Source of the DNA: Nanobdellota archaeon
Lineage (GTDB): Archaea; Nanobdellota; Nanobdellia; Pacearchaeales; GW2011-AR1
Length of the DNA stretch: 57,385 bases
Assembly (NCBI GenBank): GCA_030611805.1
Contig: JAUWPB010000003.1
Location: forward strand, 1-57,385
Reading direction: 5' to 3'
Shown here: positions 13,702 to 43,003 of the stretch, piece by piece
Layout: each line of letters starts with the position of its first letter
Numbering within the stretch: position 1 is the stretch's first letter
Translations under genes and position numbers: made by a program
The notes under the pieces: generated by a model
Databases searched by the model: none
What the model was told of the DNA's origin: nothing
Seen by the model: the letters and a program-made list of their open reading frames with translations, nothing else

Positions 13702-13776
13702 TGGCCCCGAAGGGATTTGAACCCTCGACACCTGGATTAAAAGTCCAGTGCTCTGACCAAGCTGAGCTACGGAGCC
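13702..13776 (-). tRNA. tRNA-Lys (anticodon UUU), 75 nt, no encoded CCA
   Basis: Cloverleaf folded by hand: acceptor GGCTCCG/CGGGGCC, D arm GCTC..GAGC, anticodon arm CTGGA-CTTTTAA-TCCAG, T arm GAGGG-TTCAAAT-CCCTT, discriminator A. Confidence 0.92.
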
Positions 13777-13885
13777 ATATTTGGCGACTGCGAAGCAACT
13801 TAAAAGGATGAAGTCTCGAAATGAGAGGTCACCTCGTTAGAGGTTCTTGTGCCGGGAGCCTTGGCGAGACGGTATCCCTGTGGGA

Positions 13886-13900
13886 AGCTACGGAGCCATA
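13886..13900 (-). repeat. 15-nt direct copy of the tRNA-Lys 5' end (stub) 121 bp upstream of the gene
   Basis: agctacggagccata occurs at 13765..13779 and at 13886..13900. Confidence 0.8.
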
Positions 13901-14191
13901 ATTAAATAATGAAAAAATGGTTTAAAAATTTAATGTATCAGAATAACTCTTCATTCCTCACGTGGATTTTTATGAGGATGACAACATAAAACATTACCAG
14001 AGCGAAGCGACGCAGAGTTTTAATCTTTCTTTTCAGGTTGGGGGAGGACGGTGGGACGACCAATGTATTAGAGGGATAAGCCCGCTTTTTGTTTCTTTTT
14101 TCTAAAAAGAAAATGGGGAGTTCCTATTTTGCCTTCTTTTTTGAAAGACGTATACATAAATCTATAATGTATAATTTACTTTTTTAGCTTA

Positions 14192-14908
14192 ATGAATAAA
14201 ATAAATAGAATCAAAGAAGAATGGGAAGGAAGAAGTGAAGGTTATCTAAAAGAATATAACCCGATAGAAATTGATTACGGACCAGGAGTTCCAAATGAAA
14301 ATAAATTAAACATAATTGGGTCTGTAAAAAATAAAAAAGTTTTAGATCTTGGATGTGGAGGAGGGCAAATTTCGATTGCATTTGCTAAGAAAGGTGCAAA
14401 AGTCACTGGAATAGACCTTTCTGACAAACATATAGAATTTGCAAAGAAATTAGCAAAAAAACATAAAGTAAAAATATTATTTGAACGAGGAAGCTTTCAG
14501 AAATTCCCAATGATAAAATCTAAAAGCCAAGATATTGTTTTTTCTTCATGGGCATTCTTATATTCTCCAGACCTAAAGCAAGTATTCAAGGAGGCTAATA
14601 GAGTTTTAAAAAATGAGGGATTGTTTGTATTTAGTCAAGACCATCCTTTTTTTCATTGTTTTGGAAATAATGATCTAGAAATTAAACAAAGCTATCTTAA
14701 GAGCGGAAGTGCTGGAAATCCAAATTTTATGGCTTTTAGAAGAACAATTAGTGAGATTTTCAATGCCCTAAAAGAATCTGGATTCAATGTGGAAAAAATT
14801 ATTGAACCAAAAAGTAAATGGTATGCTCGTTGGAAGGATGAAAAATATTTTAATAAAAAGAAGATAGAAATGCTTCCGACAACAATCATTTTTAAGGCAA
14901 GAAAATAA
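14192..14908 (+). CDS. class I SAM-dependent methyltransferase
   Basis: KVLDLGCGGGQISIAFAKKGAKVTGIDLS motif I/II. Confidence 0.8.
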   Translation: MNKINRIKEEWEGRSEGYLKEYNPIEIDYGPGVPNENKLNIIGSVKNKKVLDLGCGGGQISIAFAKKGAKVTGIDLSDKHIEFAKKLAKKHKVKILFERGSFQKFPMIKSKSQDIVFSSWAFLYSPDLKQVFKEANRVLKNEGLFVFSQDHPFFHCFGNNDLEIKQSYLKSGSAGNPNFMAFRRTISEIFNALKESGFNVEKIIEPKSKWYARWKDEKYFNKKKIEMLPTTIIFKARK

Positions 14909-14951
14909 CTCTTATCGAAAGGTTTATATACTACTTTGGAGTAATAAATGT

Positions 14952-15275
14952 ATGACAACTAGATATATACCGAACATAGGTGAAACGTATGACGAATATG
15001 TAGCCGAAGGTATAAAAAGTATAGGGGAATATCTTGATGGAGAAATATTTTGGGGTCCTACTGACAGAGGACGAGCTTTTGCAGCAAGAGTGGGCAGATT
15101 AAAAGATAAAGAAAGAATATATAATGAAAAATTAGCTGAAGGCAGAAGAGAAATAAGCAAAGAGCTGGATGATCAAATATTTTGGGGTCCTACTGACAGA
15201 GGACGGGCATTAGCATACAGAACATCAATATTAAGAGAAAAATTAGACAACAATCCTTTCTTTTGTGATAATTAA
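14952..15275 (+). CDS. hypothetical protein with two 44-aa repeats (core (E/Q)IFWGPTDRGRA)
   Basis: The repeats are marked by a perfect 31-nt direct repeat at 15043..15073 and 15175..15205. Confidence 0.6.
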   Translation: MTTRYIPNIGETYDEYVAEGIKSIGEYLDGEIFWGPTDRGRAFAARVGRLKDKERIYNEKLAEGRREISKELDDQIFWGPTDRGRALAYRTSILREKLDNNPFFCDN

Positions 15276-15399
15276 TTCTCGGCAAAGCCGAACTATCTAT
15301 ATAAAGGATTGGGAACTCCCCTTATCGATGAAAAATTTGCGTGAGCCTTGCGAACATTTTATCCTTGGTTATGCGAAATTTTAATTTCGTTGTTATGTT

Positions 15400-15412
15400 C
15401 CTTCGGGGCCAT
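15400..15412 (+). repeat. 13-nt inverted copy of the tRNA-Lys 3' end
   Basis: ccttcggggccat is the reverse complement of 13701..13713. It is GC-rich in an AT-rich background. Confidence 0.6.
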
Positions 15413-15421
15413 ATTATAGAC

Positions 15422-15462
15422 TTTTTGTGCAAACTATCTCCTAAAACCGGTTTTTGTGCAAA
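15422..15462 (+). promoter_or_regulatory. two 12-bp direct repeats TTTTTGTGCAAA (29-bp period) just upstream of rpoH promoter candidates
   Basis: Repeats at 15422..15433 and 15451..15462. TATA-like TTTATAAA follows at 15481. Confidence 0.45.
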
Positions 15463-15548
15463 GCTCCAAAAATCAAAAACTTTATAAATCAAATTTTATT
15501 GTTTTTCATTATTATAAAGTTGTTAAAGTAATTCCTAACTTCAATAAA

Positions 15549-15755
15549 ATGCACATTCTTCAACCAAAACATTTTAAACTCTCTGAGAAAGAGGCTGATA
15601 AACTTTTGGAAAAATTAAATGTTTCCAAAGCACAATTACCAAAAATTCTTTCAAATGACCCTGCTCTTCCAGAAGGTTGTAATGTAGGAGATATAATCAA
15701 AATAGAGAGGAAAGAAAAAGATAAAATAAATATTTATTATCGAGTTGTTGTATAA
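15549..15755 (+). CDS. rpoH: DNA-directed RNA polymerase subunit H (Rpo5)
   Basis: 68 aa, MHILQPKHFKLSEKEADKLLEKLNVSKAQLPKI...IYYRVVV; position 5' of rpoB. The track start at 15456 is GTG and extended. Confidence 0.87.
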   Translation: MHILQPKHFKLSEKEADKLLEKLNVSKAQLPKILSNDPALPEGCNVGDIIKIERKEKDKINIYYRVVV

Positions 15756-15767
15756 TTTTTTAATAAA

Positions 15768-15941
15768 ATGAAAATAAATCCAAAACCATTAGAAAAGAAA
15801 ACACGTCCTAATAATAAATTTCAGGACACGGTAGAATATTATTTGGGAAATGGCAATCTCCCGGAAGAATCAAGAAAATATGCTCGAGACTTAATTAAAT
15901 ATCAATGTAGAGACTCCAAAAAAAATGACAGATAAACATTT
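15768..15941 (+). CDS. hypothetical 57-aa ORF between rpoH and rpoB
   Basis: ATG at 15768; the stop overlaps the rpoB start by 17 nt. Not in the track (under 60 aa). Coding status uncertain. Confidence 0.35.
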
Positions 15942-18900
15942 GATTGTAAAAAAATATTTGGAAAAACATTCGCTAGTTGAATCTAATATTACTTCTTTTA
16001 ATAATTTTATTGAGCACAGAATGCAGGAGATTGTTAATGAAATATCAGAAACTATGAGTAGCGACGAATTTGAAATCATCCTCGGAAAAATAAAAGTTGG
16101 GAAACCCAAAGTAACTGAAGCCGACGGTAGTTCTTCCCTGATTATGCCTTTTGAAGCAAGAATAAGAAAACTGACTTACTCTGCTCCGATTACTCTTGAA
16201 CTAACTGTAAAAAAAGATAATCAAATTGATTCAGAAACTGTGGAAATTGGAAAAATTCCAATCATGGTTGGAAGTAGCGTGTGTAATACTCATGGTTTAT
16301 CACACGAACAATTAATTGAAAACTATAATGACCCTCGAGACCCTGGAGGCTATTTTATCATCGGAGGGAATGAAAGAGTTATGATTATGGCAGAGGACCT
16401 TGCAGAAAACCAACCATTTATTGAAACAGATAAAAAAGGAAATTTAACTTTGAGATTGTTTTCGTTAAAAGGAACATACAGAATACCGGTAACAATTTCA
16501 GAAAATAAAAAAGGAATACTTGAGACAACATTCAGCAGATTTAGAGACTTGCCGGCGATAGTAATTCTAAAGGCACTTGGTTTAACAAAAGAGTCAGACA
16601 TTGCTAAATATATCGGAAAAGAAACAGATAGTGTTATTATTAATCTTTATGAATTTGTAAACTTGGCAACTAAAGAAGATGCGATGATGGCTATTGCTGA
16701 GCAGACAAATTTGCAGGGGACAAAAAAAGAAATTCTTGACAGGGTAAACCAGAGAATTGATGCTTACTTGTTTCCACACATTGGAACGAAAAAAGAAGAC
16801 CGAATGAAAAAAGCTGTGACTTTATGCAAATTAATAAAACAATTTTTGATTGCAAAACAAAATCCTAAATTAAGAACAGACAAAGACCACTATTCAAATA
16901 AAAGGGTCAGACTTTCAGGAGATTTATTGGCTACTTTATTCAGAGTTAATTTAGGAATTTTAATAAGAGATATTCAATACTCACTGCAAAAAACAGTTAA
17001 AAGAAGAAAGTTCTTTTCTATTCGGATAATTGCAAAATCTACTTTATTTTCTCACAGGGTTGAATCTGCAATTGCAACAGGAAGCTGGACTGGGGAAAGA
17101 AGCGGTATCACGCAAAACATGGACAAGACAAATTATCTGGCAACAATTTCCCAACTGCAAAGAGTTTCAAGCATGTTGCCAAGTGATCAGGAAAACTTTT
17201 TGGCGAGAACACTTCATCCAACTCACTATGGAAGATTCTGTCCAATAGAAACTCCTGAAGGAACAGAAATTGGTTTAAGAAAAAACCTCGCAATTTTGGC
17301 AAAAATATCTACAAGAGTTGTTCTTGATGAAAACAAATTTCTAAAAGAATTAGAAGCTCAGGGGTTAAACAAAGAAGGGATTGGTGAAAAAGAAGTTTTC
17401 TTTAACGGGGAATTTATTGGAAGTGTAAATGAGCCAAAAGAATTTGTTAAAAAAATAAGAGAAAAAAGAAGAGACGGGGAACTCCCCCCACAAATGAATA
17501 TCAGGGATGACCAAAATTTCCAGTTGATTTTAATTTCAACAGAACCAGGCAGGGCTTTAAGACCATTAATAATTATCGAGGACGGAACACCAAAATTAAA
17601 AGACCAACACTTAGTTCAATTAGAGCAAGGAGAATTAGAATGGATTGATTTGATAAAACAAGGAGTAATTGAATACCTTGATGCGTCCGAAGAGGAAAAT
17701 GCTTTGGTTGCTTTGTATAAGGAAGAGGTAAGCCCGGAACACACTCATCTTGAAATAGATTCTATGGATTTGTTTGGGGTTGTAACAAGTCTTGTGCCTT
17801 ATGGAAATCACGACCAGAGTTCAAGATTAAACAGAGGAAGTAAAACGCAAAAGCAGGCTTTGGGATTGTATGCTGCGAATTATTTATGCAGATTGGATAC
17901 AGATGTGAGCATTCTCCAGTATCCTCAAAAACCAATTGTTAGAAGTTTTGTTTATGATACCTTGAACACTTATCCTGCCGGGCAAAATTTAGTGGTCGCA
18001 ATTATGACTCATGAAGGATATAATATAGAAGATGCTTTGGTATTTAACCAGGGTAGTTTAGACAGAGGCGTCGGAAGAAGTTTTTATTTCAGGCCTTACT
18101 CTGCGGTGGAAATGAGTTATGCAGGAGGTTTGAACGATGAACTTGCTATTCCTGAAAAAGATGCTACTGGATATAGGATGGAAACAAGCTACAAATTTTT
18201 GGAAAATGATGGTATTGTTTATCCTGAAGCAGAAATTAACGAGGGAGAAGTTCTTATTGGAAAAATGTCTCCTCCAAAATTTTTATCAGAGGTAAGAGAA
18301 ATTTCAGTTAAAACAAAAAAAGAATCAAGTGTAGCAATGAGACAAGAAGAAAAAGGAATTGTTGAATCAGTATTCATCACCGAAGATTCAGAAGGGAATA
18401 AAATTGTTCAGGTTAAAACAAGGGACCAAAGAATTCCTGAATTAGGAGACAAGTTTGCTACATCTCACGGACAAAAAGGTGTTGTTGGAATGATAATTCC
18501 CGAAGAGGATATCCCATTTACTTCAAAAGGAATCAAGCCAGATGTTTTATTTAACCCGCATGGATTGCCAAGCAGAATGACTGTAGGATATTTGTTGGAA
18601 TTATTGGCAGGCAAAGTTGGATGTTTAAAAGGGGAAACAATTGACGGAACTTCTTTCTCTGGAGTTGACAAAAAAGAATTAGAAAAACAATTAAAAAATT
18701 TAGGATTTAGATATGATGGAAAAGAAACAATGTTCAATGGGATTACTGGGAAAAGACTGAGTGCGAAAATTTTTATTGGGAATTTATATTATTTGAAATT
18801 AAAATATATGGTTGGGAACAAATTGCACGGAAGAGCTTCTGGAAAAGTTGCGTTATTGACAAGACAACCTATTGAAGGAAGAGCGAGAGGAGGGGCATTA

Positions 18901-19176
18901 AGATTAGGAGAAATGGAACAGCAGGCATTAGTTGCTCACGGTGCTTCATTATTATTAAAAGAAAGATATGATTCGGATAAAGTTGTGTTGCCAATCTGTA
19001 CAAAATGCGGAGCCATTGCAATAGACGACAGCATAAGGAATAAAATAGAATGCCCTCTATGCCACTCTGAAGATACAGAACCTGTTGAAGTATCATATGC
19101 ATTTAAATTATTATTAGAAGAATTACAAGGATTGCACATCCGAACATTCTTTGGATTAAAAAACAAATACGAATAA
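15925..19176 (+). CDS. rpoB: DNA-directed RNA polymerase subunit B (unsplit)
   Basis: 1083 aa with blocks GYFIIGGNERV, SHGQKGV, GEMEQQALVAHGA and a C-terminal Zn motif CTKCG..CPLC. Confidence 0.97.
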   Translation: MTDKHLIVKKYLEKHSLVESNITSFNNFIEHRMQEIVNEISETMSSDEFEIILGKIKVGKPKVTEADGSSSLIMPFEARIRKLTYSAPITLELTVKKDNQIDSETVEIGKIPIMVGSSVCNTHGLSHEQLIENYNDPRDPGGYFIIGGNERVMIMAEDLAENQPFIETDKKGNLTLRLFSLKGTYRIPVTISENKKGILETTFSRFRDLPAIVILKALGLTKESDIAKYIGKETDSVIINLYEFVNLATKEDAMMAIAEQTNLQGTKKEILDRVNQRIDAYLFPHIGTKKEDRMKKAVTLCKLIKQFLIAKQNPKLRTDKDHYSNKRVRLSGDLLATLFRVNLGILIRDIQYSLQKTVKRRKFFSIRIIAKSTLFSHRVESAIATGSWTGERSGITQNMDKTNYLATISQLQRVSSMLPSDQENFLARTLHPTHYGRFCPIETPEGTEIGLRKNLAILAKISTRVVLDENKFLKELEAQGLNKEGIGEKEVFFNGEFIGSVNEPKEFVKKIREKRRDGELPPQMNIRDDQNFQLILISTEPGRALRPLIIIEDGTPKLKDQHLVQLEQGELEWIDLIKQGVIEYLDASEEENALVALYKEEVSPEHTHLEIDSMDLFGVVTSLVPYGNHDQSSRLNRGSKTQKQALGLYAANYLCRLDTDVSILQYPQKPIVRSFVYDTLNTYPAGQNLVVAIMTHEGYNIEDALVFNQGSLDRGVGRSFYFRPYSAVEMSYAGGLNDELAIPEKDATGYRMETSYKFLENDGIVYPEAEINEGEVLIGKMSPPKFLSEVREISVKTKKESSVAMRQEEKGIVESVFITEDSEGNKIVQVKTRDQRIPELGDKFATSHGQKGVVGMIIPEEDIPFTSKGIKPDVLFNPHGLPSRMTVGYLLELLAGKVGCLKGETIDGTSFSGVDKKELEKQLKNLGFRYDGKETMFNGITGKRLSAKIFIGNLYYLKLKYMVGNKLHGRASGKVALLTRQPIEGRARGGALRLGEMEQQALVAHGASLLLKERYDSDKVVLPICTKCGAIAIDDSIRNKIECPLCHSEDTEPVEVSYAFKLLLEELQGLHIRTFFGLKNKYE

Positions 19177-19177
19177 A

Positions 19178-19432
19178 ATGACAGACCATATAGAAAGAAC
19201 AACGAATAATATTGGAAGAGACATAGCCTCTAAGATACCTCCTGAATATTTAGATGATTATCTTAAGAAATTGGATGTATTAGGAGATGAGGGATTAGAC
19301 CTTAGTAATGGATGGATCAATATTTGTGAATTTACTAATGAAGGCTGTAAAGGGGTGGCTAAAAAAGGAAAGTTTTATGACTGTTGTGTAAATAAAGGAA
19401 AAAATTGTTCGGAATACTTAAATTTAAAATGA
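19178..19432 (+). CDS. hypothetical 84-aa protein, Cys-rich C-terminus, between rpoB and rpoA
   Basis: Starts 2 nt after the rpoB stop and has an ATGA overlap with rpoA. Contains CEFTNEGCKGVAKKGKFYDCCVNKGKNC. Confidence 0.55.
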   Translation: MTDHIERTTNNIGRDIASKIPPEYLDDYLKKLDVLGDEGLDLSNGWINICEFTNEGCKGVAKKGKFYDCCVNKGKNCSEYLNLK

Positions 19433-22400
19433 ATAAACCAATAAGAAAAAAAATTAGCGAAATAAAATTTTCTCTGCTTAATCCTGAGCAGATTAAAAAA
19501 CTCTCGTGTGCAAAAATAGTTACACCAGAATTATATAATATCGACGGGTATCCAGTAGATGGAGGGCTTATGGATTTAAAACTTGGAGCAATAGACCCTG
19601 GAGTAAAATGTCGGACATGTGGTGGGCGGCTTAAAGAGTGTCTGGGTCATTCTGGAAGTATTGACCTTGCAAGATCTGTAATGCATTTAAAATATATTCC
19701 TTTAGTTGAATTAGGATTAAGATGTTTTTGTCGTTCATGTGGGAAATTATTACTTGCAGACAAGGACTTGGAAAAGTATTCTCCAAGCCAAAGAGCAAAA
19801 AAAGCAAAAGATTCTAAAAAATGTCCTCATTGTGGGGAGGCTAATGAAAAAATTAAATTAGATAAACCAACAAGCTTTTACATAGGACGAGTAAGGTTAT
19901 TCCCGACAGAAATCAGAGAAATTCTGACAAAGATTCCGGATTCTGAATTGCACAAAGTTGGAATTGACACCGAAACTTGCAGACCAGAATGGGCGGTTTT
20001 GACTTCGCTGTTAGTTCCTCCTGTAACAGTCAGACCAAGTATTATTTTAGAATCTGGTGAAAGAAGCGAGGATGATTTAACTCACAAACTTTCTGATATT
20101 ATAAGAGCTAATCAACGGCTTTGGGAAAACCTGAATGCAGGAGCTCCGGAAGTTATCATAGAAGATTTATGGGATTTGTTGCAATTTCATATTACAACTT
20201 TTTTCGATAATACTGTCGCAAGAATTCCTCCCGCAAGGCACAGGAGTGGACAGCCATTAAAAACAATCACAGAAAGAATCAAAGGAAAAGAAGGAAGAAT
20301 CCGAAAAAATTTAGCAGGAAAAAGAGTTAATTATTCCGGGAGAACTGTAATCTCTCCTGATTCCTCAATTGAAATTAATGAAGTTGGTGTTCCTTATGAA
20401 ATTGCCAAGATAATTACTGTTGCAGAAAGTGTTACTGATTTGAATATTGAAAAATTAAAAAAGTTAGTTGAAAAAGCAGAGAAATATCCAGGAGCAAATT
20501 ATATTATAAGACCAGATGGAAAAAGAAAAAAAATCGTTCCTGAACTTAAGGAAGAAATCATAAGTGAACTTAGGGTAGGATATAAAGTTGAAAGGCATTT
20601 GCAGGACGGGGATGTTGTTTTATTTAACCGGCATCCAAGTTTGCATAGAGGAAGTTTGATGGCTCATTTTGTAAAAGTTCTGCCAGGAAGAACATTTAGA
20701 CTCCACCCTTCTGTAGCATTTCCATATAACGCTGATTTTGACGGGGATGAAATGAATATTCACTCTCCACAAACAGAAGAAGCAAGAGCAGAGGCAAAAA
20801 TACTTCTTGATGTTAAAAAGAATTTAATCTCTCCAAAGAATAATACAAATCTTATAGGCTGTGTAGCAGATGCAATTACCGGAAACTATTTGTTAGGATT
20901 GGATGAATTTCCAAGAGATTATGCAAATCAAATTCTTTACAAAGCAGGAATTGATGCCCAAATTTCAAAAAAAACGATTTCAGGGACAGATATATTTTCT
21001 GAAGCATTGCCAAAAATAAATTTATCCAATGACTCAGTGAATATAAAAGATGGAAAAATAATCAAAGGAAAAATAGACAAAACTCTTTTTGGAAGCGAAG
21101 ACGGAGAATTAATTAAAGAACTGGATAAAAAATTTGACAAGGAAAAAACTTTTGAAACAATAAAAAAAGTTTTTAATTTAGGAATAAATTACCTGACTGA
21201 CAGAGGTATAACAATCTCTGTTAATGATTTGGATTTAGATGAACATGTTGTTAATTCCGGAAAAGAAATTATCAAAAAAGCCGAGAAAAAAACAAATGAA
21301 ATAATTGATTCTTACAACCAAAAAACTCTTGAGATAATCCCGGGAAAAACAGAAGAGGAATCCAGAGAAATAAAAATACTTCAGGTTTTGAATGAAGTTA
21401 GAACAAAAATTGGAGAGATAGTAAAAAAAGAGTTCCCTGAAAAAAATCCTGTAAGTTATATGATTAAGTCAGGAGGCGGGGGCAATATTTTAAACATCAC
21501 ACAAATGGCTTGCTGTGTCGGGCAACAGGCATTTGTCGGAGGAAGAGTAGACATTGGTTATACTGAAAGGACACTTTCATTTTTTAAACGAAGGGATTTA
21601 TCTCCGAGGTCAAGAGGATTTATCCATAGCTCATTCATGAAAGGATTAAGACCTGACGAGTTTTTCTTTGGTGCGATTACTGGAAGAGATTCACTTATGG
21701 ATACTGCATTAAGAACACCTAAATCAGGTTATCTTTACAGAAGATTAGCTAATGCACTGCAGGATATCAAGATTGAATATGACAAAACTGTAAGAGATAG
21801 CAATAACAGTATAATCCAATTTAAATATGGGGACGATGGAATAGATGTTTCAAAACTTCATAAAAATGAGAAGCTGGAATCCGGAGAAGCGATTGGAATT
21901 ATTACTGCTCAATCTTTTGGTGAACCTTCAACCCAGATGGTTATGAGAACTTTCCATATGGCAGGAGTTGCAGAAATGCAGGTTACTATGGGTCTTCCAA
22001 GACTTATAGAAATTTTTGATGCAAGAAAAAAACCGTCTTCGCCTAAAATGGAGATTTATTTAAAAAAAGAATATAACAATGAAAAAGATGCCAGAGTTTT
22101 TGCGGAAAAGATAAAAGAAGTTACATTAAAAGAAATATCTTCAGAGATTAATTTGAATTTTAGTGATAAGGAAATTGAAATAAAGATTGATAAAAAAGGG
22201 TTAAGACAAACTCATACTTCAATAAAGAAAGTTGTGGAAAAACTTAATGGTCTGAAGTTTAATGTAAAAGAAAAAACAGACTCAATAATTTTGAATGCGT
22301 CTGAATCAAGTTTTACAGAAATATATCAACTCAAAGAAAAACTTAAGAAAACAATAATTTCAGGGATTAAAGGAGTGGAGCAAATTTTAATTGTTAAGAA

Positions 22401-31388: not shown

Positions 31389-31418
31389 TATATAATTTAA
31401 TTTTTGCTTTCCCTAATC

Positions 31419-31493
31419 ATGCCAATCAAATTCAAACCTTCAGGACTTAGAAAATTAAAAAAAATAATTTTTAAAAGAAACAAAAACATTTAA
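31419..31493 (+). pseudogene. 5' stub of the endonuclease-IV-like gene (MPIKFKPSGL...), 24 codons
   Basis: 25/30 nt identical to the start of the intact gene at 32158 (MSIKFGPSGL). Has its own TATA-like box. Confidence 0.55.
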
Positions 31494-31517
31494 ATAGGAT
31501 GTAAGATATGTCTTACC

Positions 31518-31787
31518 ATGACAATGATAAATATAACTCGGATGAGTTCAAAAGGGCAAATAGTAATCCCTGTTAATATGAGAAATAACTTGAAAGCAGG
31601 AGATGAATTAATTATAATTAAAGATGATGAAAGAATTATTTTAAGAAAAGCAGAGAATCTAACTGAACAATTAAAAGAAGATTTAGAATTTGCAAGGAGA
31701 ACTGAGGAAGCTTACAAAAGAATAGAATCTGGAGAATTTATAACAGTTGATTCTGAAAATCTTTTTGAGGAAATGGGTAAATGGTAA
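31518..31787 (+). CDS. AbrB/MazE/SpoVT-family antitoxin
   Basis: MSSKGQIVIPVNMRNNLKAGDEL swapped-hairpin motif. A toxin-like gene lies immediately downstream. Confidence 0.78.
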   Translation: MTMINITRMSSKGQIVIPVNMRNNLKAGDELIIIKDDERIILRKAENLTEQLKEDLEFARRTEEAYKRIESGEFITVDSENLFEEMGKW

Positions 31788-31832
31788 AACAAGTTTTTCT
31801 AAGATATATTTTTATTGGAGGAAAAATGCATA

Positions 31833-32081
31833 ATGGTAGAAATCCGTTTTGATAAAAAATTTACAAATATTTTTTCCAAGATAAAAGACGCATTATTTAG
31901 AACAAAGATAATAAAACAAGTTAAAAAAATTTCTGAAAATCCAGAGATTGGAAAGCCAATGAGAAATATTAGAAAAGGAACACGAGAAATTTCCATCAAG
32001 CCATTTAGATTGTCTTATTCTTATTTCCCTGAAAAAGAAATTGTATATATTTTGGACTTGTATCATAAAAAGAAACAATGA
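31833..32081 (+). CDS. RelE/ParE-superfamily toxin
   Basis: 82 aa, ENPEIGKPMRNIRKGTREISIKPFRLSYSY...IVYILDLYHKK. GGAGG upstream. Confidence 0.68.
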   Translation: MVEIRFDKKFTNIFSKIKDALFRTKIIKQVKKISENPEIGKPMRNIRKGTREISIKPFRLSYSYFPEKEIVYILDLYHKKKQ

Positions 32082-32157
32082 TTTTTTCAACAAGCCTTTC
32101 TTTTCTTCCCTTTCCATAAACAACAAATTCTTTAAACTATTTTCATCTTATCCTACT

Positions 32158-32946
32158 ATGTCAATTAAATTCGGTCCTTCAGGACTTGGAGGAATTAAAC
32201 AGGCAATTTCTAATTTAGAAATGTATCACAAGCTCGGAATAAAAGCATGTGAAATTGCATTCACTCATAACATTTATATTCAAAAAAAGAAAGATGCTTT
32301 GGAAATTAGTAAGGCAGCAAAAAAGTTTGGAATTAAATTAAGTATTCATGCTCCATATTATATTAATCTTAATTCCAAGGACAAAGAAATAATTAAAAAA
32401 AGCAAACAAAGAATTTTGAAGTGCTGTGAGATTGGAACATATTTAGGAGCTTACAGAATTGTTTTTCATCCTGGATATTATAATGGATTTGACAAAGAAA
32501 AAACTTATGAAAATATTAAAAATACAATTTTAGAAATGCAAAAAGAAATTAAATCAAAAAAATACATCCCAAAACTTGCTCCTGAAACAACCGGAAAGAT
32601 AAATGTTTTTGGAAGCATTGATGAAATTTCACAGCTTGTCCAAGACACTAAGTGTAGTTTTTGTATTGATTTTGCACACATACTTGCAAGATACAAAACT
32701 TATAAATTCAAAGAAGTCTTAGAAAAATTTGAAAAACATAATGAATTACATATTCATTTTTCCGGAATAGAGTATGGTGAAAAAGGTGAGAAAAGACATC
32801 TTAAAACTCCTGAAAAAGATTTAAACAAACTTGTCTCAGCTTTACCGAAGAGAAAAAGAATAACAATAATTAATGAAAGTCCTTTCCCCTTGCAAGATTC
32901 TATTTTGGGATTGAGAATTCATAAAAAAATAAACTTTTTGCCATGA
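32158..32946 (+). CDS. nfo: endonuclease IV-like / xylose-isomerase-like TIM-barrel protein
   Basis: LSIHAPYYINL, RIVFHPGY, APETTGK, CIDFAHI, HIHFSGIEY metal-ligand-like blocks. Start at MSIKFGPSG. Confidence 0.75.
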   Translation: MSIKFGPSGLGGIKQAISNLEMYHKLGIKACEIAFTHNIYIQKKKDALEISKAAKKFGIKLSIHAPYYINLNSKDKEIIKKSKQRILKCCEIGTYLGAYRIVFHPGYYNGFDKEKTYENIKNTILEMQKEIKSKKYIPKLAPETTGKINVFGSIDEISQLVQDTKCSFCIDFAHILARYKTYKFKEVLEKFEKHNELHIHFSGIEYGEKGEKRHLKTPEKDLNKLVSALPKRKRITIINESPFPLQDSILGLRIHKKINFLP

Positions 32947-36358: not shown

Positions 36359-36372
36359 TTTTTCTTTTGATT

Positions 36373-36534
36373 CTAAATAAAACCAATTAAATTTAATTTG
36401 CTTATCTTATCTTGCGAAAGATTATCTTTTTTATGCCTTTGTCTCTGATGGCTTGCCCAGTTTGCAAGATATTTTTCTAATTTATTTTTTGAAGTAGTTA
36501 GTGGAAACCTACCGTATTTTTTCTTAATAAACAA
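36373..36534 (-). pseudogene. helicase-associated (HA) domain-like remnant, 53 codons, no ATG
   Basis: Translation ...KLEKYLANWASHQRQRHKKDNLSQDKISKLNLIGFI resembles one HA repeat. Only a TTG start is available. Confidence 0.3.
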
Positions 36535-36582
36535 ATATCTTTTTTAATTATTTTTTCAAAACAACTTTTATATTTTAATAAC

Positions 36583-36897: not shown

Positions 36898-37060
36898 TAT
36901 AATCTTCCTGGGTTTTTCCTTTTATTTTTCCCATCTCAATATCCCCCACTCTAATTTTTACTATTTCATTTTGGAACACTTGTTCTACTTCATTAATTAA
37001 TATTTCTGCTGTGTTTAATATTTTATTAAAATCTGTTTTTTCTACTTGAATTGTTTCCAT
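36851..37060 (-). CDS. putative cognate antitoxin (69 aa)
   Basis: Immediately upstream of the RelE-like gene and overlapping it by 47 nt. Family not recognised. Confidence 0.45.
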   Translation of the reverse strand: METIQVEKTDFNKILNTAEILINEVEQVFQNEIVKIRVGDIEMGKIKGKTQEDYNEYLRKRGIECKISR

Positions 37061-37090
37061 ATCTTTTATATAGAATAAAACTTTAAATAT

Positions 37091-37249
37091 TTATTGGTTT
37101 ATAAAAAGAGATAAATCAATTGCTTCTTTTGTTCTTTCAATAAGTTCATCCATGCTCTTTGCTTGAGTATGACACCCAGGCAGTCCGACTACCTCTGAAA
37201 CATAATAACCTTCTTCATCTTTTTCAATAATTATATTAAAGTTAGCCAT
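37091..37249 (-). CDS. HicB-like (UPF0150) antitoxin-family miniprotein, 52 aa
   Basis: Not in the track. Translation MANFNIIIEKDEEGYYVSEVVGLPGCHTQAKSMDELIERTKEAIDL is a classic HicB N-domain pattern. No hicA seen. Confidence 0.65.
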   Translation of the reverse strand: MANFNIIIEKDEEGYYVSEVVGLPGCHTQAKSMDELIERTKEAIDLSLFINQ

Positions 37250-37308
37250 AATAATTACAACATGAAAGAGTATTTAAGATTTGTGCAAGCAGATCTTTAA
37301 ATAAATTT

Positions 37309-38469
37309 TCAAAACTCCAAAATCTTTCTTGCGTTTTCTAAAATCCTGTTTTCAAAAACTGTTGTTGTCTCTCCCTCTTGTTTTTCAATTGAAAGGGAGT
37401 TCATTAATTGCGGAATCAATTCATTAAAACCAGAAGGATTTTTCTCCGAATAAATCTTGATTGTTTCTTCCTCAACATTTTCAGAATCCTTAATTTCAAA
37501 TTCTAACTCAACTTCTTTTGTTTTCAAGTCATGGGTGTTCCTTAACATAAAGTACGAATTTTTTTGTTTTACAAATTCCTCTATTTGCACAAATTTAATG
37601 TCTGAATTTTTCCCCTTTTCCAATTCCCCTTTTAATCTCAAAAGAACGATTTTATTTTCTAAATCTTTTTTATTCAGTTCAGAAATTATCTGCTCTGTTG
37701 CCAAAAGTGCATTTTTAATGTGAATTTCAAAGGATACAATCTCTTTAATTTTTAATTCTATTTTTTGCAAATGATTTTCTGCTTCAGTGTCAACAATATA
37801 AAAACTTCCGTGTTCTAAATCTTCGAGTTCCTGAAAATTGTTAGGAAATACCGGACCAGGGTAAACAAAATTTTTGTATTGGAAATCCATGTGCAAGTGC
37901 CCTAAAGCATAATAATCTGCATGCGGGAGCAAGTCTGTTTCTATAGCATCTATCGGAAGTGTGCCTTTTGCCTTGTCAATTGTTGTGTGCAGCATAAAAA
38001 TTTTAAACATTCCCGGAGAGTCATTTAACTTTATTTTCCTCAGGTCTTGAACTTCTAAACTTGATTTCTTTCCAGGATAACCATAAATCGCGACACCTTT
38101 ATGAAGCACAGGGTTTAACAAAATTAAATTATCTTTTTCTTCAAAATCTGTTACATTCCTGCAAAATCCTGCCTTCTCTAAAACATCTAAAAAAGTTTTT
38201 CCAGAAACAGAGTAATCATGAGAACCGGCAATTATAAAGCAAGGAATTTTGGCTTTTTTGAGTTTCCTGAATTCAGCAAAAGTTTCTTTAAGAATTTCAA
38301 TTGAAGGATAAGCTGAGTCAAATAAATCTCCTGCTATTAAAACAAAGTCTAATTTTTTATTTATGCAAATCTCAATTGTTTTTTGAAATGACCGGAAATT
38401 CAAATCCTGCAGTGGCTGTTGTTTCCATCCTCCAAGATGAACATCTGCGATGTGTGCAAATCTAACCAT
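37309..38469 (-). CDS. mre11: Mre11/SbcD-family DNA repair nuclease
   Basis: Phosphoesterase motifs HIADVHLG, GDLFD, AGSHD, GHLH. Confidence 0.87.
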   Translation of the reverse strand: MVRFAHIADVHLGGWKQQPLQDLNFRSFQKTIEICINKKLDFVLIAGDLFDSAYPSIEILKETFAEFRKLKKAKIPCFIIAGSHDYSVSGKTFLDVLEKAGFCRNVTDFEEKDNLILLNPVLHKGVAIYGYPGKKSSLEVQDLRKIKLNDSPGMFKIFMLHTTIDKAKGTLPIDAIETDLLPHADYYALGHLHMDFQYKNFVYPGPVFPNNFQELEDLEHGSFYIVDTEAENHLQKIELKIKEIVSFEIHIKNALLATEQIISELNKKDLENKIVLLRLKGELEKGKNSDIKFVQIEEFVKQKNSYFMLRNTHDLKTKEVELEFEIKDSENVEEETIKIYSEKNPSGFNELIPQLMNSLSIEKQEGETTTVFENRILENARKILEF

Positions 38470-38645
38470 GATTAAAAGTTGGAGAAGGGATATATAAAGA
38501 TTATTGGAGAGAAGTGTAAGGATTGGAGTTTTGCGTTAAAAATTAAGTTTATAATTCTTAATATGCGTTGTTTAACAATTGAGAATTTATCTTAAATAAA
38601 AAAGAGGAAGGAAGAATTTATAATCTGTAATATTTTTATTAAATT

Positions 38646-39524
38646 ATGTTTACTAAATACAAAAAAAATCCAATCATTATTCCAGATTATAAAATAAGCT
38701 ATGAAAAAGAGTGCGCATACAATCCTTGTGCGATTGTTCATCATAAAAAAATACATCTTATTTATAGGGCAGAAGGACAATACAGGGATTACATTTCCAG
38801 TCTTTGTTTAGCAACAAGTGAAGATGGATATAATTTTACTAAATATAAAAAAAATCCAATAATTAAACCTACAAAGACTGAAGAAAAAAGAGGGTGCGAA
38901 GACCCAAGAATAACAAAAATTAAAGATACATTTTATTTAACTTACACAGCATATAATGGACATGATATTTCGTTATCGCTGGCAACATCCAGAGACCTCA
39001 TTCATTGGAAAAAACAAGGTATCATACTAAAAAACACGAAGTCAGGAGATATTTATCCAAAAAAGATTAATAATGAATATTTGATGTTTGTTGGTAAGGG
39101 AGATATATCTATTGCAAGATCTTCAGATTTAAAAAATTGGAAATTAGATAAAGAACATTTTTTATGCCCAAGAAAAAATTATTTTGACTCCAGATTGGTA
39201 GAAGTTGGACCCCCATTTATAGAACTTAAAGATAAATTGGTGATGATCTATAATTCATCAGATAAGTATATTAGATACTCTCCATCTTTTATTATATTGG
39301 ACAAGAAAAATCCTCTAAAAATTTTATATAGGCATGATAAGCCAATGCTAAGTCCTAATAGCCAGTTTGAATTGTTTGGAAAAGTGAATAATGTAATTTT
39401 TGCAGAAGGGCTTGTTAAATTTAAGGGAAAATATTTTTTATACTATGGCGGGGCAGATAAATGTATTGGCGTGGCAACAGCTACTCAAAAAGAAATTGAA
39501 AAGAGTTTTCCTCCTGTAAGATGA
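38646..39524 (+). CDS. GH130-family glycoside phosphorylase/hydrolase (DUF377 type)
   Basis: Repeated YKKNPII, CAYNPCAI, GCEDPRITKI, YYGGADK blocks. Confidence 0.82.
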   Translation: MFTKYKKNPIIIPDYKISYEKECAYNPCAIVHHKKIHLIYRAEGQYRDYISSLCLATSEDGYNFTKYKKNPIIKPTKTEEKRGCEDPRITKIKDTFYLTYTAYNGHDISLSLATSRDLIHWKKQGIILKNTKSGDIYPKKINNEYLMFVGKGDISIARSSDLKNWKLDKEHFLCPRKNYFDSRLVEVGPPFIELKDKLVMIYNSSDKYIRYSPSFIILDKKNPLKILYRHDKPMLSPNSQFELFGKVNNVIFAEGLVKFKGKYFLYYGGADKCIGVATATQKEIEKSFPPVR

Positions 39525-39553
39525 ACATCTGCAATATGGGCAAATCGTGTCAT
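39485..39553 (-). pseudogene. 5' stub of mre11 (MTRFAHIADVHLTGG..., 22 codons)
   Basis: 29/36 nt identical to the genuine mre11 start (38434..38469). A promoter-like region is also partly duplicated. It overlaps the GH130 stop in antisense. Confidence 0.65.
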
Positions 39554-39782
39554 GAAAATTTTAGAAACAAGAAATATTTAAAGATGATTGTGATTAAGGG
39601 TATAAAAAATTAATTTGATGTGTGTTGGAAAGTATTGTTTTTAGATCCTATTGGAAGATTATCAATAGTTTATTATTGAGAATCTTATGTTAGACGAAAT
39701 CTTATTGTTCTCTAAATAAAAAACAGGAAGCTTAAAAATTTGAAATAGTTTTCTTTATAAATAACGAGGTACCATCTAATTC

Positions 39783-40343
39783 ATGGGAATAGTTACAGGA
39801 TATTTAACAAATCCGAGTTTATCCAAAGTAGATCTTGGGGAAAAGATTGGAAAATTTGAAAGGTTAGGTCTTGAAATTAGATTATTTGATGAAGGATTAA
39901 GAAGGGGGAATACAATTGGTCCAAATGGAATTTTACTTTCTGGTAATGTTGATTTAAGTTCAACAGATATCATGAAAATAATGTATGGTTCAGAAATGCC
40001 TAAAAATATAAAAGGTTTGACTTATGATGTTTCATCATCAGAAGGAGGGGAGGATTTTGACGTTAGAAGATTAATTTTTGGAAATTTTGATTCTTATTTT
40101 GTTTTAAGGGTTAATATTGAAGAGAATAAAAGCAGAGTTTTAGATTTTAATAAAGATTATTTAGAAAAACAAGAAGATATTGGTTTTAGATATGTTGAGC
40201 CAGGATATGTTGCTTATGAATACTTAGTCAATGGCGATGATTTTAATTTAAGATTCAAACAGGCTAAACAGGTTTTATTAAAAGAAAGATTAAAATTAAA
40301 TAAAAAAGAAACAACAATTATTCATAATTTGTTACAAAATTAA
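39783..40343 (+). CDS. hypothetical protein (186 aa)
   Basis: ORF with CTTTATAAAT box 20-30 nt upstream. Confidence 0.55.
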   Translation: MGIVTGYLTNPSLSKVDLGEKIGKFERLGLEIRLFDEGLRRGNTIGPNGILLSGNVDLSSTDIMKIMYGSEMPKNIKGLTYDVSSSEGGEDFDVRRLIFGNFDSYFVLRVNIEENKSRVLDFNKDYLEKQEDIGFRYVEPGYVAYEYLVNGDDFNLRFKQAKQVLLKERLKLNKKETTIIHNLLQN

Positions 40344-40412
40344 AGGAAAACATTTCAAATAATTAAAAAGCCCCTCTTAATTAATACCAATTATGAGGAA
40401 AATCCTGCAAGG

Positions 40413-40453
40413 ATTTTGCCCAAATTTCTTCCACTTCGTTCCAGAAACTTCTC
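40413..40453. repeat. direct repeat copy 1 (41 bp)
   Basis: attttGcccaaatttcttccacttcgttccagaaacttctc is 40/41 identical to 41153..41193 and exactly 740 bp away. Confidence 0.92.
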
Positions 40454-40475
40454 TAAATCCTGATGTTAAATGAAA

Positions 40476-41048
40476 TAATATTTTAGTGTGCTAAATGCAA
40501 ATATTTAATAATATAAAATAATTGTAATAAGATATGAAAGTTGTTTTATACATGGCAATAACTGCAAATGGATATATTGCTAAAGAAAATAATGAAACTC
40601 CTTGGTCTGATGAAGAATGGGAAAGTTTTTCTACAAAAGTTAAAGAGATTAAAAATATTGTAATAGGTAGAAAAACTTTCGAGATTATGGAAAAAGGAGG
40701 GGAGTTTCAAAAAATAGACAATCCATTCACAGTTATAGTTTCTAATAAAAAAGAAAATAATTCAAATTTTGTAAATTCTCCTGAACAAGCAATTGATTTG
40801 TTAAAAGAAAAAGGTTTTTCTGAAGTTCTTGTTGCAGGAGGAGGAATATTAAACTCATCATTTATGCAAAAAGGTTTAGTCGATGAAATTTATTTAGATA
40901 TTGAACCTTTTTTGTTTGGAAAAGGAATTAAACTTTTTGCAGATAATGACTTCGAAACAAAATTAGAATTATTAGAAACAAAACAACTTTCAAAAAATAC
41001 AATACAATTACATTATAAGATTCTTAAGTAACGCACACTAAAATATTA
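40476..41048 (+). mobile_element. 573-bp single-gene cassette bounded by perfect 16-bp inverted repeats
   Basis: TAATATTTTAGTGTGC (40476..40491) and GCACACTAAAATATTA (41033..41048). No recombinase inside. Confidence 0.35.
40534..41031 (+). CDS. dihydrofolate reductase-like protein (RibD C-terminal domain family)
   Basis: MKVVLYMAITANGYIA...IGRKTFE...VLVAGGGILNSSF...DEIYLDIEPFLFGKG. Confidence 0.78.
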   Translation: MKVVLYMAITANGYIAKENNETPWSDEEWESFSTKVKEIKNIVIGRKTFEIMEKGGEFQKIDNPFTVIVSNKKENNSNFVNSPEQAIDLLKEKGFSEVLVAGGGILNSSFMQKGLVDEIYLDIEPFLFGKGIKLFADNDFETKLELLETKQLSKNTIQLHYKILK

Positions 41049-41152
41049 CTCTGCGGTTTGCTTTCAGCAAATCCTCGGGGACGCTGCACTTTCGTCGCTA
41101 TCGCTCCTCACCCTCATATAACAAGGGATAAAAGGAAAAATGCTCAGCTCGC

Positions 41153-41193
41153 ATTTTACCCAAATTTCTTCCACTTCGTTCCAGAAACTTCTC
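41153..41193. repeat. direct repeat copy 2 (41 bp), in the recQ 3' flank
   Basis: See copy 1. A degenerate extension reaches the recQ stop codon (41207..41209). Confidence 0.92.
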
Positions 41194-41206
41194 ATAATCG
41201 TGAATG

Positions 41207-43003
41207 TTATCCCTTCTCAAAACCATTCTCTCCAACATACTCATTTATCACTTTCAAAAAAACATCTCCAAAACTTTTTAATTTTGTTTCTCCAACTCCA
41301 TTAATTTTTAAGAAACTTTCTTTGTTACACGGAAAATAATATGCCATCTCCTGAAGCGAGGCATTACCAAAAATAACAAAAGCAGGCACGTTCCTTTCAT
41401 CAGCTATTTTCTTTCTTAATTCTTTCAACTTCCTGAATAATATTCTGTCGTAATCTAAATCTTCTTTAATTTTTTTCGTGATTATTTTTTCTTCCTCTTT
41501 TGGTTTTTGAATTTCTATCTTAACTGGAGTTTGCAAAAATTCTCTTGCTTTGAATGTAAGTGAAAGTGTTGGATAATCTCCTTCACTCTTTTTAATAAAA
41601 TCCAGATTAATTAAAGATAAAATAATTTCTTTTAATTCATCATCTGAAAAATCCTTTTCAATTCCAAAAACAAAGAATTTCTTATGCCAGTCTTTCACGC
41701 TTTCTTTTCCTTTTAAAACTTTAATTATGTAATTTGTTCCAAAAAAACCTCCTGTTAAATCAATGCAGGAAAAAATGTTTTGTGCAATTTTTGTGGCATT
41801 AAAAAGTTCTTTTTTGGTTAAGCAAATATCACATGCATTGCATTTTTCATTTGAACATTCTTCTCCAAAATAATTAAGAATATATTTTCTCCTGCAACTT
41901 AATGATTCAGCATAATCAATTATCTCTCTTAACTTTCCTTTTTGATACTCGCGGGTTTTCTCATTTTCAATTTGATTAATAAAAAAGTCATGTTTTCTTT
42001 TGTCCCTTGCTGCATAAAACATTACACAATCGCTTTTTAGTCCGTCTCTGCCTGCTCTTCCAATTTCCTGATAATATCCTTCAATGGTTTTTGGAAATGT
42101 GCAATGAATCACCATCCTTACATTGGATTTATCAATTCCCATTCCAAAAGCAATAGTCGCAGCAATAATTTGCACTTCATCTTTTATGAACAACTCCTGA
42201 TTTTTTTTCCTTGTTTCATCATTTAATCCTGCATGATAAAAAACAGCCTTATACCCTCTTTCAATTAAATCGCCTGCCATCTTCTCTGTTTCTTTGCGTG
42301 AAAAACAATAAATTATTATCTGTTCATTCTCATGTTTTTTTATTAACTCTAAAATTTTATCAAATGAGTTCTTTTTTTTCATGACAAGAAGATTAAGATT
42401 CTCCCTGTTGCAACTTGAAATAAAAATTTTCGGATTCTTTAAAGAAAGCTGGTTTATTATATCTTCTCTGACTTTTTTTGTTGCCGTGGCTGTTAAAGCC
42501 ACCATAGGAACTTTTGGGAACATTATTCTTAAATTTTTTAAACTTCTATAATCCGGGCGGAACTCATGCCCCCATTCAGAAATGCAATGAGCTTCATCAA
42601 CTGCAATTAAACTTAAATCAAGCGTCTTTAAAAATTTCTTAAAGCTGTCTTGCGCCAATCTTTCCGGAGCAACATAAAGAATCTTTGTTTCTCCTTGGTA
42701 AATCCTATATTGAATATCTATAATGTCTGTATATGACAAAGACGAATTAATGAACTCTGCGGAAATTCCATTTGCTTTGAGGCTGTCAACCTGATCTTTC
42801 ATGAGTGCAATGAGCGGAGAAATAATTAAAGTCAGCCCATTAAATTTTAATGCGGGAAATTGATAGCAAAGCGATTTTCCTCCTCCTGTAGGCATGAGAA
42901 TAAAAGTGTCTTGGTTTTGCAAAATACTATTTATTATATCTAATTGCATTGGTCTAAATTCTTCATAACCAAAATAAGCTTTAAGGAGATTTTTCATTTT
43001 CAT
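41207..43003 (-). CDS. recQ: ATP-dependent DNA helicase RecQ (with RQC/HRDC-type C-terminus)
   Basis: MPTGGGKSLCYQ, DEAHCISEWGHEFRPDY, TATAT, AFGMGIDK, QEIGRAGRDG, and a Zn-binding C..C..C..C block. Confidence 0.93.
   Translation of the reverse strand: MKMKNLLKAYFGYEEFRPMQLDIINSILQNQDTFILMPTGGGKSLCYQFPALKFNGLTLIISPLIALMKDQVDSLKANGISAEFINSSLSYTDIIDIQYRIYQGETKILYVAPERLAQDSFKKFLKTLDLSLIAVDEAHCISEWGHEFRPDYRSLKNLRIMFPKVPMVALTATATKKVREDIINQLSLKNPKIFISSCNRENLNLLVMKKKNSFDKILELIKKHENEQIIIYCFSRKETEKMAGDLIERGYKAVFYHAGLNDETRKKNQELFIKDEVQIIAATIAFGMGIDKSNVRMVIHCTFPKTIEGYYQEIGRAGRDGLKSDCVMFYAARDKRKHDFFINQIENEKTREYQKGKLREIIDYAESLSCRRKYILNYFGEECSNEKCNACDICLTKKELFNATKIAQNIFSCIDLTGGFFGTNYIIKVLKGKESVKDWHKKFFVFGIEKDFSDDELKEIILSLINLDFIKKSEGDYPTLSLTFKAREFLQTPVKIEIQKPKEEEKIITKKIKEDLDYDRILFRKLKELRKKIADERNVPAFVIFGNASLQEMAYYFPCNKESFLKINGVGETKLKSFGDVFLKVINEYVGENGFEKG

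Follow-up and report, generated by a model that had tools for sequence, protein, structure and literature searches.

Homology-facilitated illegitimate recombination (HFIR) is an established process (de Vries & Wackernagel 2002; Prudhomme et al. 2002; Meier & Wackernagel 2003), and the passages of PMC5361080 and PMC2884548 that cite these works invoke it for stub-leaving displacement in type VI secretion system (T6SS) and Rhs loci. The genomes of DPANN archaea are tiny, and none of the routes by which they may acquire genes is well described. Here we analyze a stretch of 57,385 nucleotides from a Nanobdellota archaeon (assembly GCA_030611805.1, contig JAUWPB010000003.1, positions 1 to 57,385; hereafter the window), in which short copies of gene ends, or stubs, stand apart from the intact gene with a small cargo in between. 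A previous reading of the sequence alone had described four such loci, at tRNA-Lys, nfo, mre11 and recQ, and had tentatively attributed them to one uncharacterised cassette-insertion machinery. We found that the cargos are insertions with empty sites in relatives, that the two copies of the mre11 start are different alleles and that one cargo gene, GH130, is joined illegitimately to the mre11 stub. Our preferred reading, whose chances we put at about even, is that the stubs are scars of homology-anchored gain of foreign DNA by general recombination (HFIR or insertion-duplication), filtered by selection.

Gene-end duplicates and the empty sites of relatives

The window has a G+C content of 31%, and its genes match those of Pacearchaeota/Woesearchaeota-type DPANN archaea, as judged from the record titles of the matches. 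The gene calls made from the sequence alone hold: tRNA-Lys(UUU), DnaG, an AbrB/MazE-ParE pair, nfo (AP_endonuc_2 domain in Pfam), mre11 (Metallophos domain), GH130, a RibD_C/DHFR-like gene and recQ. For comparison, 80 species-level loci around mre11, 41 metagenome loci around nfo and a set of targeted contigs were used (loci of relatives carry labels such as L130), including a near-clonal sister contig, ENA ERZ4220366 NODE_147, labelled L124 and L138.

In a self-comparison of the whole window, the pairs at the DHFR unit, mre11 and nfo are the strongest local direct repeats, an in-gene tandem repeat aside, and the only ones that reach 45 bits at a spacing of 250-3000 nt (69.3, 55.2 and 45.7 bits, respectively). 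The best of 40 composition-preserving block shuffles, scored over the same spacing, gave 39.4 bits. Each of the four duplicates was located at the positions named by the sequence-only reading or right beside them. Identical structures are found in independent assemblies (Logan contigs L081, L082, L139 and L140, and ENA NODE_147), so that an assembly artefact, also discounted by that reading, is excluded.

The proposed arrangement, in which a cargo displaces a stub while the host gene stays intact, was borne out as well. Because relatives supply empty sites, at tRNA-Lys, nfo and mre11/recQ, the cargos are insertions; they are absent from ~130 related loci. A promoter copy stands upstream of both stub and gene, and the host genes were left or made intact. 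The possibility that stubs are conserved small open reading frames (ORFs) or upstream ORFs was followed in the relatives, where they are not conserved.

The mre11, nfo and recQ loci

In the closest relatives, L130 and L131, whose mre11 is 88-89% identical to that of the window, the gene order is POR(-), recQ(+), a 66-nt spacer and mre11(+); in many other species POR lies directly beside mre11 (80 species-level loci). Since L130 and L131 lack the DHFR unit, the ORF p186, the mre11 stub, GH130 and the transporter gene MFS404 between the recQ stop and the mre11 promoter, or between POR and recQ, these are inserted in the window. There, the intact mre11 with its promoter and 5' untranslated region (UTR), which we call type B (CCAACTTTTAATC), occupies 37309..38531 on the minus strand (Pfam; haplotype comparison). 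The GH130 cargo with its own 70-nt upstream region follows at 38576..39524 on the plus strand (Pfam; homology). The stub, recognized by haplotype comparison at 39515..39615 on the minus strand, consists of a type-A promoter and 5' UTR (CTCTAAAATTTTC) and the first 36-39 coding nt, with its ATG at 39553-39551, in agreement with the promoter plus ~36 coding nt read earlier. The copies at 38421-38506 and 39505-39590 are 69.8% identical over 86 nt (E 8e-8), and identity rises to 78% in a 51-nt core; the segment 39505-39514 of the pair belongs to GH130 and not to mre11.

The two copies represent different promoter-proximal types. Type A, CTCTAAAATTTTC-ATGAC(A/G)CG, is complete in L130, L009 and the window stub, and its 5' UTR also occurs in L003 and L004; the stretch CTCTAAAATTTTC-ATGACNCG is common to the stub, L130 and L009. 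Type B, CCAAYTTTTAATC-ATGGTT, is the form carried by L131 and by the intact gene of the window. Over the 41 nt upstream, the stub agrees with L009 at 36/41 positions and with the window's intact copy at only 22/41, and within the first 12 codons the differences between stub and intact gene are mostly synonymous. Stub and intact copy are two natural haplotypes and therefore not in-situ twins, and on this comparison one of the two came from another lineage.

This bears on a rival explanation, in-situ target duplication, which we consider unlikely for the loci as a whole. It supposes that a fragment became trapped at a staggered break, by template switching during replication or through unequal exchange between copies of the genome; fill-in would leave 15-120 nt of target sequence repeated on either side, and of the two repeats the non-functional one would decay. 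That each mre11 haplotype is shared with other genomes speaks against it, as do the 36/41 and 22/41 matches upstream, and we know of no process that gives target duplications of 50-120 nt in archaea.

The joint between cargo and stub is also informative. GH130 homology to a GH130 locus elsewhere (P0247/L134) covers 38576-39514, that is, the gene and its 70 nt upstream, and stops 9 nt before the native stop: in place of the native end ...NFLPTS* the window has ...SFPPVR*, whose stop and the 3 codons before it are read from the antisense of the mre11 stub. The motif GGAGGA is present on both partners at this joint as a microhomology. From these sequences the joint is an illegitimate fusion and not a precise cassette boundary. 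An identical 15-nt stretch, GCAGATGTTCATCTT, lies inside the mre11 repeat, and the far joint is the out-of-frame GH130 fusion. No homologues of the cargos were found near mre11 or nfo in relatives, and the closest relative of GH130 on a long contig, P0247/L134, stands in an unrelated context.

Other features of this region were recorded. GH130 contains an internal repeat (38649-38679 and 38835-38865, 94%) that encodes FTKYKKNPII twice and is present in homologues too, being a family feature. At 37091-37249, HicB is cut to 52 aa and HicA is missing, the hicBA pair being kept in L130 and L117; in L130 the p69-ParE104 pair stands on the opposite side of hicB, so that this toxin-antitoxin islet was rearranged without a stub.

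At nfo the ancestral backbone, as defined from the 41 nfo loci of relatives, is EF1a-DnaG-nfo-S-layer, with a DnaG-nfo gap of 108 nt in the closest relative, L117, and of 10-45 nt in other relatives. The window has, all on the plus strand, a stub at 31393..31474 (26 upstream nt and the first ~56 coding nt, ATG at 31419; sequence comparison), a cargo at 31518..32081 that consists of an AbrB/MazE antitoxin gene (31518-31787) and a ParE toxin gene (31833-32081) with their own promoter (Pfam), and the intact nfo of the endonuclease IV family at 32133..32946 (ATG at 32158; Pfam), whose promoter is orthologous to that of L117. The toxin-antitoxin pair and the stub were found in 0/41 related nfo loci, L117 included. 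The repeats, 31393-31474 and 32133-32213, are 69.5% identical over 82 nt (E 5.7e-5) at a spacing of 740. As a side observation, L096 carries three copies of a ~80-nt element (~80% alike; 785-868, 2867-2950 and 5906-5977) that flank an inverted DnaG and nfo and may have mediated this inversion.

In-situ duplication does find evidence at nfo: derived bases seen in none of the relatives are common to both copies, and the decay of the stub consists mainly of G-to-A changes. The promoter of the stub, however, lacks ~37 nt present both in the intact copy and in L117. The same explanation is also favored by the 92% identity of the DHFR repeats, by the exact tRNA repeat and by the L130-like sequence of both recQ promoter copies (see below). 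In this sense, in-situ duplication fits nfo and the DHFR unit and does not fit mre11.

Just after the recQ stop, relative to L130 and L131, lies the cargo p186 (39783..40343, plus strand), which has no family match in Pfam. It is followed by the DHFR unit (40413..41203, plus strand), defined by its repeats and the RibD_C/DHFR gene (40534-41031, plus; Pfam), which also contains a 104-nt G+C-rich stretch (41049-41152, plus), and by the intact recQ (41207..43050, minus strand; Pfam and comparison), which has its own promoter copy TTTAAACACTGGAAATTTTTTAATG and encodes 598 aa, compared with 596 aa in L130 and L131. The direct repeats of the unit, 40413-40463 and 41153-41203, have a spacing of 740 and are 92% identical over 51 nt (E 4.5e-12). 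The DHFR gene itself is bounded by a perfect 16-bp inverted repeat (40476-40491 and 41033-41048), which extends imperfectly to 51 nt and has no other copy in ~2 Mb of related sequence. A transposon or miniature inverted-repeat transposable element (MITE) does not agree with inverted repeats found only at the DHFR unit and without further copies; the direct repeats, which span 15 to ~120 nt across loci, are not adjacent to the inverted ones.

The sequence-only reading had taken the DHFR pair as a duplicate of the recQ 3' end, and here it has to be corrected. The start of the 51-nt repeat lies 3 nt beyond the recQ stop. No sequence resembling this repeat is present in the 66 nt between recQ and mre11 in L130 and L131; by this comparison it is part of the inserted DNA and not of the recQ terminus. 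Provisionally, it may be the 3' flank of p186, whose hairpin precedes copy A. Two candidates were rejected in this region: a truncated recQ, considered because L062 has ~125 extra C-terminal residues, is at odds with the 596 aa of the closest relatives, and a DHFR match in L073 is low-complexity sequence inside rad50.

We also found a fifth case, absent from the earlier list. MFS404, a transporter gene (43062..44320, minus strand), starts behind a recQ promoter copy of the ancestral type (44277-44320, TTTAAATGTGTTGATTTTTTAATG) and is missing between POR and recQ in L130. In L130 the POR-proximal recQ promoter is TTTAAATGTGTTGCTTTTTTTAAT; the matching window sequence now precedes MFS404, and recQ has TTTAAACACTGGAAATTTTTTAATG. 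Both window copies are L130-like.

Gene-end duplicates analogous to those of the window recur in relatives at 5' and 3' ends. The 3' end of a methyltransferase gene is duplicated in L006, that of a small ORF in L015 (spacing 739) and gene ends in L046; between or beside the copies lie a 277-aa ORF, a NYN gene and two ORFs, respectively. In L065 the mre11 promoter and start are duplicated (98%), the upstream copy sitting on the neighboring gene, and in L086 a promoter and six codons are common to two different ORFs. In L117 the SMC 3' end is duplicated (95%) 214 nt downstream; at 8467-8721 a 41-nt SMC copy follows a 172-nt G+C-rich insert and is followed by hicBA, a 3'-end counterpart of the window stubs.

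A diversity-generating retroelement (DGR) was also considered for the window repeats and rejected, as these show mixed substitutions and indels and not mismatches confined to the adenines of one copy. Only pairs in three related Pacearchaeota fit a DGR, with A in one copy against G/C/T in the other. They are template and variable repeats at ORF 3' ends, at 9408-9504/9798-9894 in L052, 8777-8866/9188-9277 in L058 and 17913-17990/18234-18311 in L055.

The tRNA-Lys locus and the strain-specific tract

The intact tRNA-Lys(UUU) lies at 13701..13777 on the minus strand (ARAGORN; Rfam 71.4 bits). The exact 15-mer TATGGCTCCGTAGCT is found at 13765-13779, where it covers the first 12 nt of the tRNA and 3 upstream nt, and again 121 nt upstream at 13886..13900 (minus strand), where 12 gene nt and TAT form a 5' stub; by our own estimate, the chance of such a G+C-rich 15-mer recurring within 500 nt is ~2e-7. 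Between both copies there is a G+C-rich insert of 106 nt (13780..13885, minus) with its own TATA-like sequence CTTTTAAG, ~27 nt upstream of the tRNA. The promoter before the 5' stub (TTTTTAAAC) matches that of the uninterrupted tRNA of L126. In L126 and L128, which represent the empty site, the promoter directly precedes an intron-containing tRNA-Lys; stub and insert are absent there and present in the window and in the sister allele L124. Also, a 12-nt 3' stub (CCTTCGGGGCCA), another case that the sequence-only reading did not list, lies at 15400..15411 on the plus strand, inverted with respect to the gene and at the edge of the strain-specific segment 13901-15406. A diverged 3' stub is found in L124 at the same place.

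The surroundings of this locus differ between near-clonal strains. NODE_147 is 99.5-99.96% identical to window positions 2761-45057 over ~42 kb, with 13157..15453 as the sole exception. This tract comprises the 5' half of DHODH, with 46 mismatches (~9% diverged) that stop near 13157; the tRNA-Lys module, inverted and ~10% diverged, with a 52-nt intron in NODE_147 and none in the window; and an extra 1.5 kb in the window with a methyltransferase gene (14192-14908), p107 and a G+C-rich stretch. It looks like an imported divergent allele, and its end near 13157, inside the conserved DHODH gene, is where a homologous crossover in an anchor gene is apparently seen.

Two further explanations have to be weighed here. 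The first is that stub and insert at tRNA-Lys are a functional leader or small RNA, no scar at all and unrelated to the protein-gene loci, which we regard as improbable. In its favor, two alleles ~10% apart, one of them with the intron, both preserve the stub perfectly. A hairpin shows compensatory changes between them (UCUC/GAGA against CUUGC/GCAGG), and the first 12 nt of the tRNA find their complement in the 3' part of the insert. Nevertheless, these comparisons involve two sequences only, the fold z-scores of the insert are only -1.3 and -1.6, and the tRNA of L126 and L128 works without it. Neither the insert nor the G+C-rich stretches of the DHFR unit and of L117 have an Rfam match at gathering or permissive thresholds. 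Reading the insert as a bulge-helix-bulge intron was rejected, since inspection by eye revealed no complementary 4-mers at the putative junctions.

The second explanation invokes decayed integrative elements: their attP would have resembled the end of a gene, integration would have been the work of a tyrosine or serine recombinase now lost or encoded elsewhere, and internal deletions would have left only small cargos. A partial gene copy with a core repeat is reportedly the classic signature of integration at tRNA genes, and the exact 15-16-nt core at tRNA-Lys, the 5' and 3' stubs, the diverged 3' stub of L124 and the module inverted between near-clonal strains all agree with it. It is most plausible at this locus, which may also hold integrase scars. 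For the loci together we rate it a minor possibility: the inserts, from 106 nt to 1.2 kb, would each have suffered a near-total internal deletion, every locus would demand a different att, GH130 is fused out of its native stop, unlike a precise att crossover, and no integrase turned up in the ORFs scanned (see below). The 51-mer, the tRNA-insert core, DHFR and p186, moreover, are absent from the viral contigs searched. The likeness to tRNA-targeting elements drawn by the sequence-only reading may be literal at tRNA-Lys, where both kinds of stub exist; an integrase to go with it was absent among the ORFs scanned.

Some observations on this tract stand apart. The strain-specific p107 ORF (14952-15275) contains a 123-nt tandem repeat (14988-15110 and 15120-15242, 71%). 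A G+C-rich non-coding stretch at 14019-14094 of the strain-specific segment, whose plus strand ends in GCCCGCTTTTT, could be a small RNA followed by a terminator; in Rfam it hits only wcaG, far below threshold (22.9 bits, cut-off 42). Apart from a few close kin, the proteins most similar to DHODH (dihydroorotate dehydrogenase, 12761-13687) are those of CPR/Patescibacteria with 72-75% identity, which suggests a cross-domain transfer of this gene.

Proposed mechanism and known systems

The loci would be explained as follows. DNA of co-occurring Pacearchaeota, diverged by 5-30%, would enter the cell, and one of its sides would pair with a conserved gene or promoter (mre11, nfo, recQ, tRNA-Lys or DHODH), where homologous exchange would resolve it. 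The other side, without homology, would be joined illegitimately at a microhomology. This corresponds to HFIR of a linear piece or, equivalently, to a single-crossover (Campbell-type) insertion-duplication of a circularised one. Where this joint came to lie a few dozen bases into the anchor gene of the recipient, the resident promoter and first codons would remain as a stub with the cargo behind it, and the incoming promoter and gene start would run into the resident gene and keep it intact. Selection would then act twice: the survivors would be those events that regenerate a working essential gene, and only repeats that are short or diverged would avoid being deleted when one copy recombines with the other. 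What we infer here are the order of events, the route of DNA entry and a route common to all loci.

Several points weigh against this view. Stub and gene end at nfo look like the same allele which, together with DHFR repeats 92% alike, fits an in-situ target duplication equally well, and the nfo, DHFR and recQ-promoter repeats could equally derive from very close donors or from duplication in situ. No homologous crossover was located in mre11: an apparent breakpoint near 778 (p = 3e-6, informative sites) was discarded, as distance matrices blame the divergent 3' part of L131, so that the three-taxon mosaic is due to L131 and not to the window, and no 5' drop in identity to L001 was seen. The donor arrangement was not seen either, with no GH130-mre11, TA-nfo or MFS-recQ adjacency in ~130 related loci (TA being the toxin-antitoxin pair). 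None of the 5' stubs exceeds 56 nt, for which selection against long repeats has to be assumed in addition; the tRNA stub, perfectly kept in two diverged alleles, hints at a function more than at a scar; and natural uptake of DNA by these archaea is an assumption.

Whether a dedicated machinery exists was addressed by Pfam scans for recombinases in ~30 window ORFs (genes of the loci and ORFs without relatives) and in 9 cargo ORFs at the relatives' events. Neither set contains an integrase, resolvase, transposase, Cas1 or HUH protein, which agrees, for the window ORFs scanned, with the absence of an integrase stated before. All-against-all comparison of the seven inserted units gave only chance-level matches in the search for a shared sequence or end motif, and the small G+C-rich inserts score at shuffle level as a common family. 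Likewise, no IntI was found among the window ORFs scanned and no shared attC-like site among the seven units.

In this sense, the undescribed system proposed from the sequence alone, which would insert sub-kb cassettes at promoters or gene starts and regenerate the gene end, now seems to us very unlikely. There are indeed at least 5 cases in 57 kb with a promoter duplicated each time, promoter-plus-codon duplicates at 5' ends in L065 and L086, and repeats several-fold denser than in the 1.18 Mb of relatives covered by our repeat scan, by a hand count and in a window that was selected for them. Additionally, the start-to-start spacing is nearly equal in three independent pairs, at nfo (31393 to 32133, 740), at the DHFR unit (40413 to 41153, 740) and in L015 (5684 to 6423, 739-741 nt); these units share no sequence. 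A single machinery is not upheld by what we found: there is no candidate enzyme and no shared site or motif, repeats differ between loci in length and make-up, joints are heterogeneous and that of GH130 is illegitimate, 3' ends are affected too, mre11 carries two alleles, and the near-clonal sister contig differs only in a rearranged tract whose divergence stops within DHODH. The regeneration is accounted for, with no need of a mechanism, by selection for intact essential genes, and general recombination with selection is enough to explain all loci.

A bolder variant, which we hold to be rather improbable, would also cover the shared spacing. Pacearchaeota would regularly acquire genes by way of circular or linear cassettes of ~0.7 kb that took up a promoter and gene start in an earlier host and re-insert at the same gene of a new one by a single homology-guided crossover. 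This would amount to a quasi-specific, possibly enzyme-assisted promoter-trap route of gene gain, with the 739-740-nt spacing reflecting a size-defined intermediate, and we grant this part the same small chance.

These loci are base-level snapshots of single accessory genes added beside essential genes without breaking them, the cargos being a toxin-antitoxin pair, a glycoside phosphorylase, a reductase and a transporter. Should the reading by general recombination hold, gene flow among co-occurring strains would suffice to build variable islets through very short homologies where conserved genes begin and without integrases, and stubs would be a practical marker for dating or counting such events in metagenome-assembled genomes.

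Among known systems, mobile insertion cassettes and MITE-like elements resemble the DHFR gene bounded by its perfect 16-bp (51-nt imperfect) inverted repeat, although the unit is not repeated elsewhere in ~2 Mb of related sequence, its inverted repeats are not edged by a short target duplication, and a transposase is lacking. Integrons, reportedly also present in archaea, gather sub-kb and often promoter-poor single-gene or toxin-antitoxin cassettes at one spot; here, by contrast, IntI, attI and a shared attC-like palindrome are lacking, and the cassettes sit at different genes and not in a single array. With tRNA-targeting elements (SSV-type, pTN3-type and bacterial islands) the tRNA-Lys site shares the partial tRNA that flanks an insert, the reconstituted tRNA and the character of a hotspot with nested scars and an inversion. 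It differs in that no integrase was found in the ORFs scanned and in that the 106-nt insert lies on the 5' side, most such elements replacing the 3' part; the protein-gene loci would each need an att of their own.

Closer likenesses are found in recombination without a site. In Rhs and contact-dependent inhibition (CDI) toxin tips and in T6SS effector-immunity arrays (PMC5361080), a homologous segment displaces a gene end and leaves an orphan stub, and repetition builds arrays. There, a constant 5' region carries a variable 3' toxin tip that is displaced under diversifying selection, whereas here the displaced pieces are mostly housekeeping 5' ends with promoters and the cargos are unrelated genes. 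Campbell-type insertion-duplication gives the same order of truncated copy, insert and intact copy, with a repeat spacing equal to the length of the circle; it is known mainly from laboratory constructs, whereas natural sub-kb circles with a captured gene start would have to be assumed. HFIR shares with our loci one homologous anchor in a conserved gene, one microhomology joint, foreign genes beside the anchor and the lack of a dedicated enzyme or site. It was described in naturally transformable bacteria, usually with deletion of recipient DNA; in the present case the organisms are uncultured DPANN archaea, short gene starts including promoters are duplicated, and the donor arrangement was not seen. 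Thus, our finding is a variant of a known recombination scar, set apart by its unusual density, by its position mostly at promoters and 5' ends, and by its occurrence in a DPANN genome.

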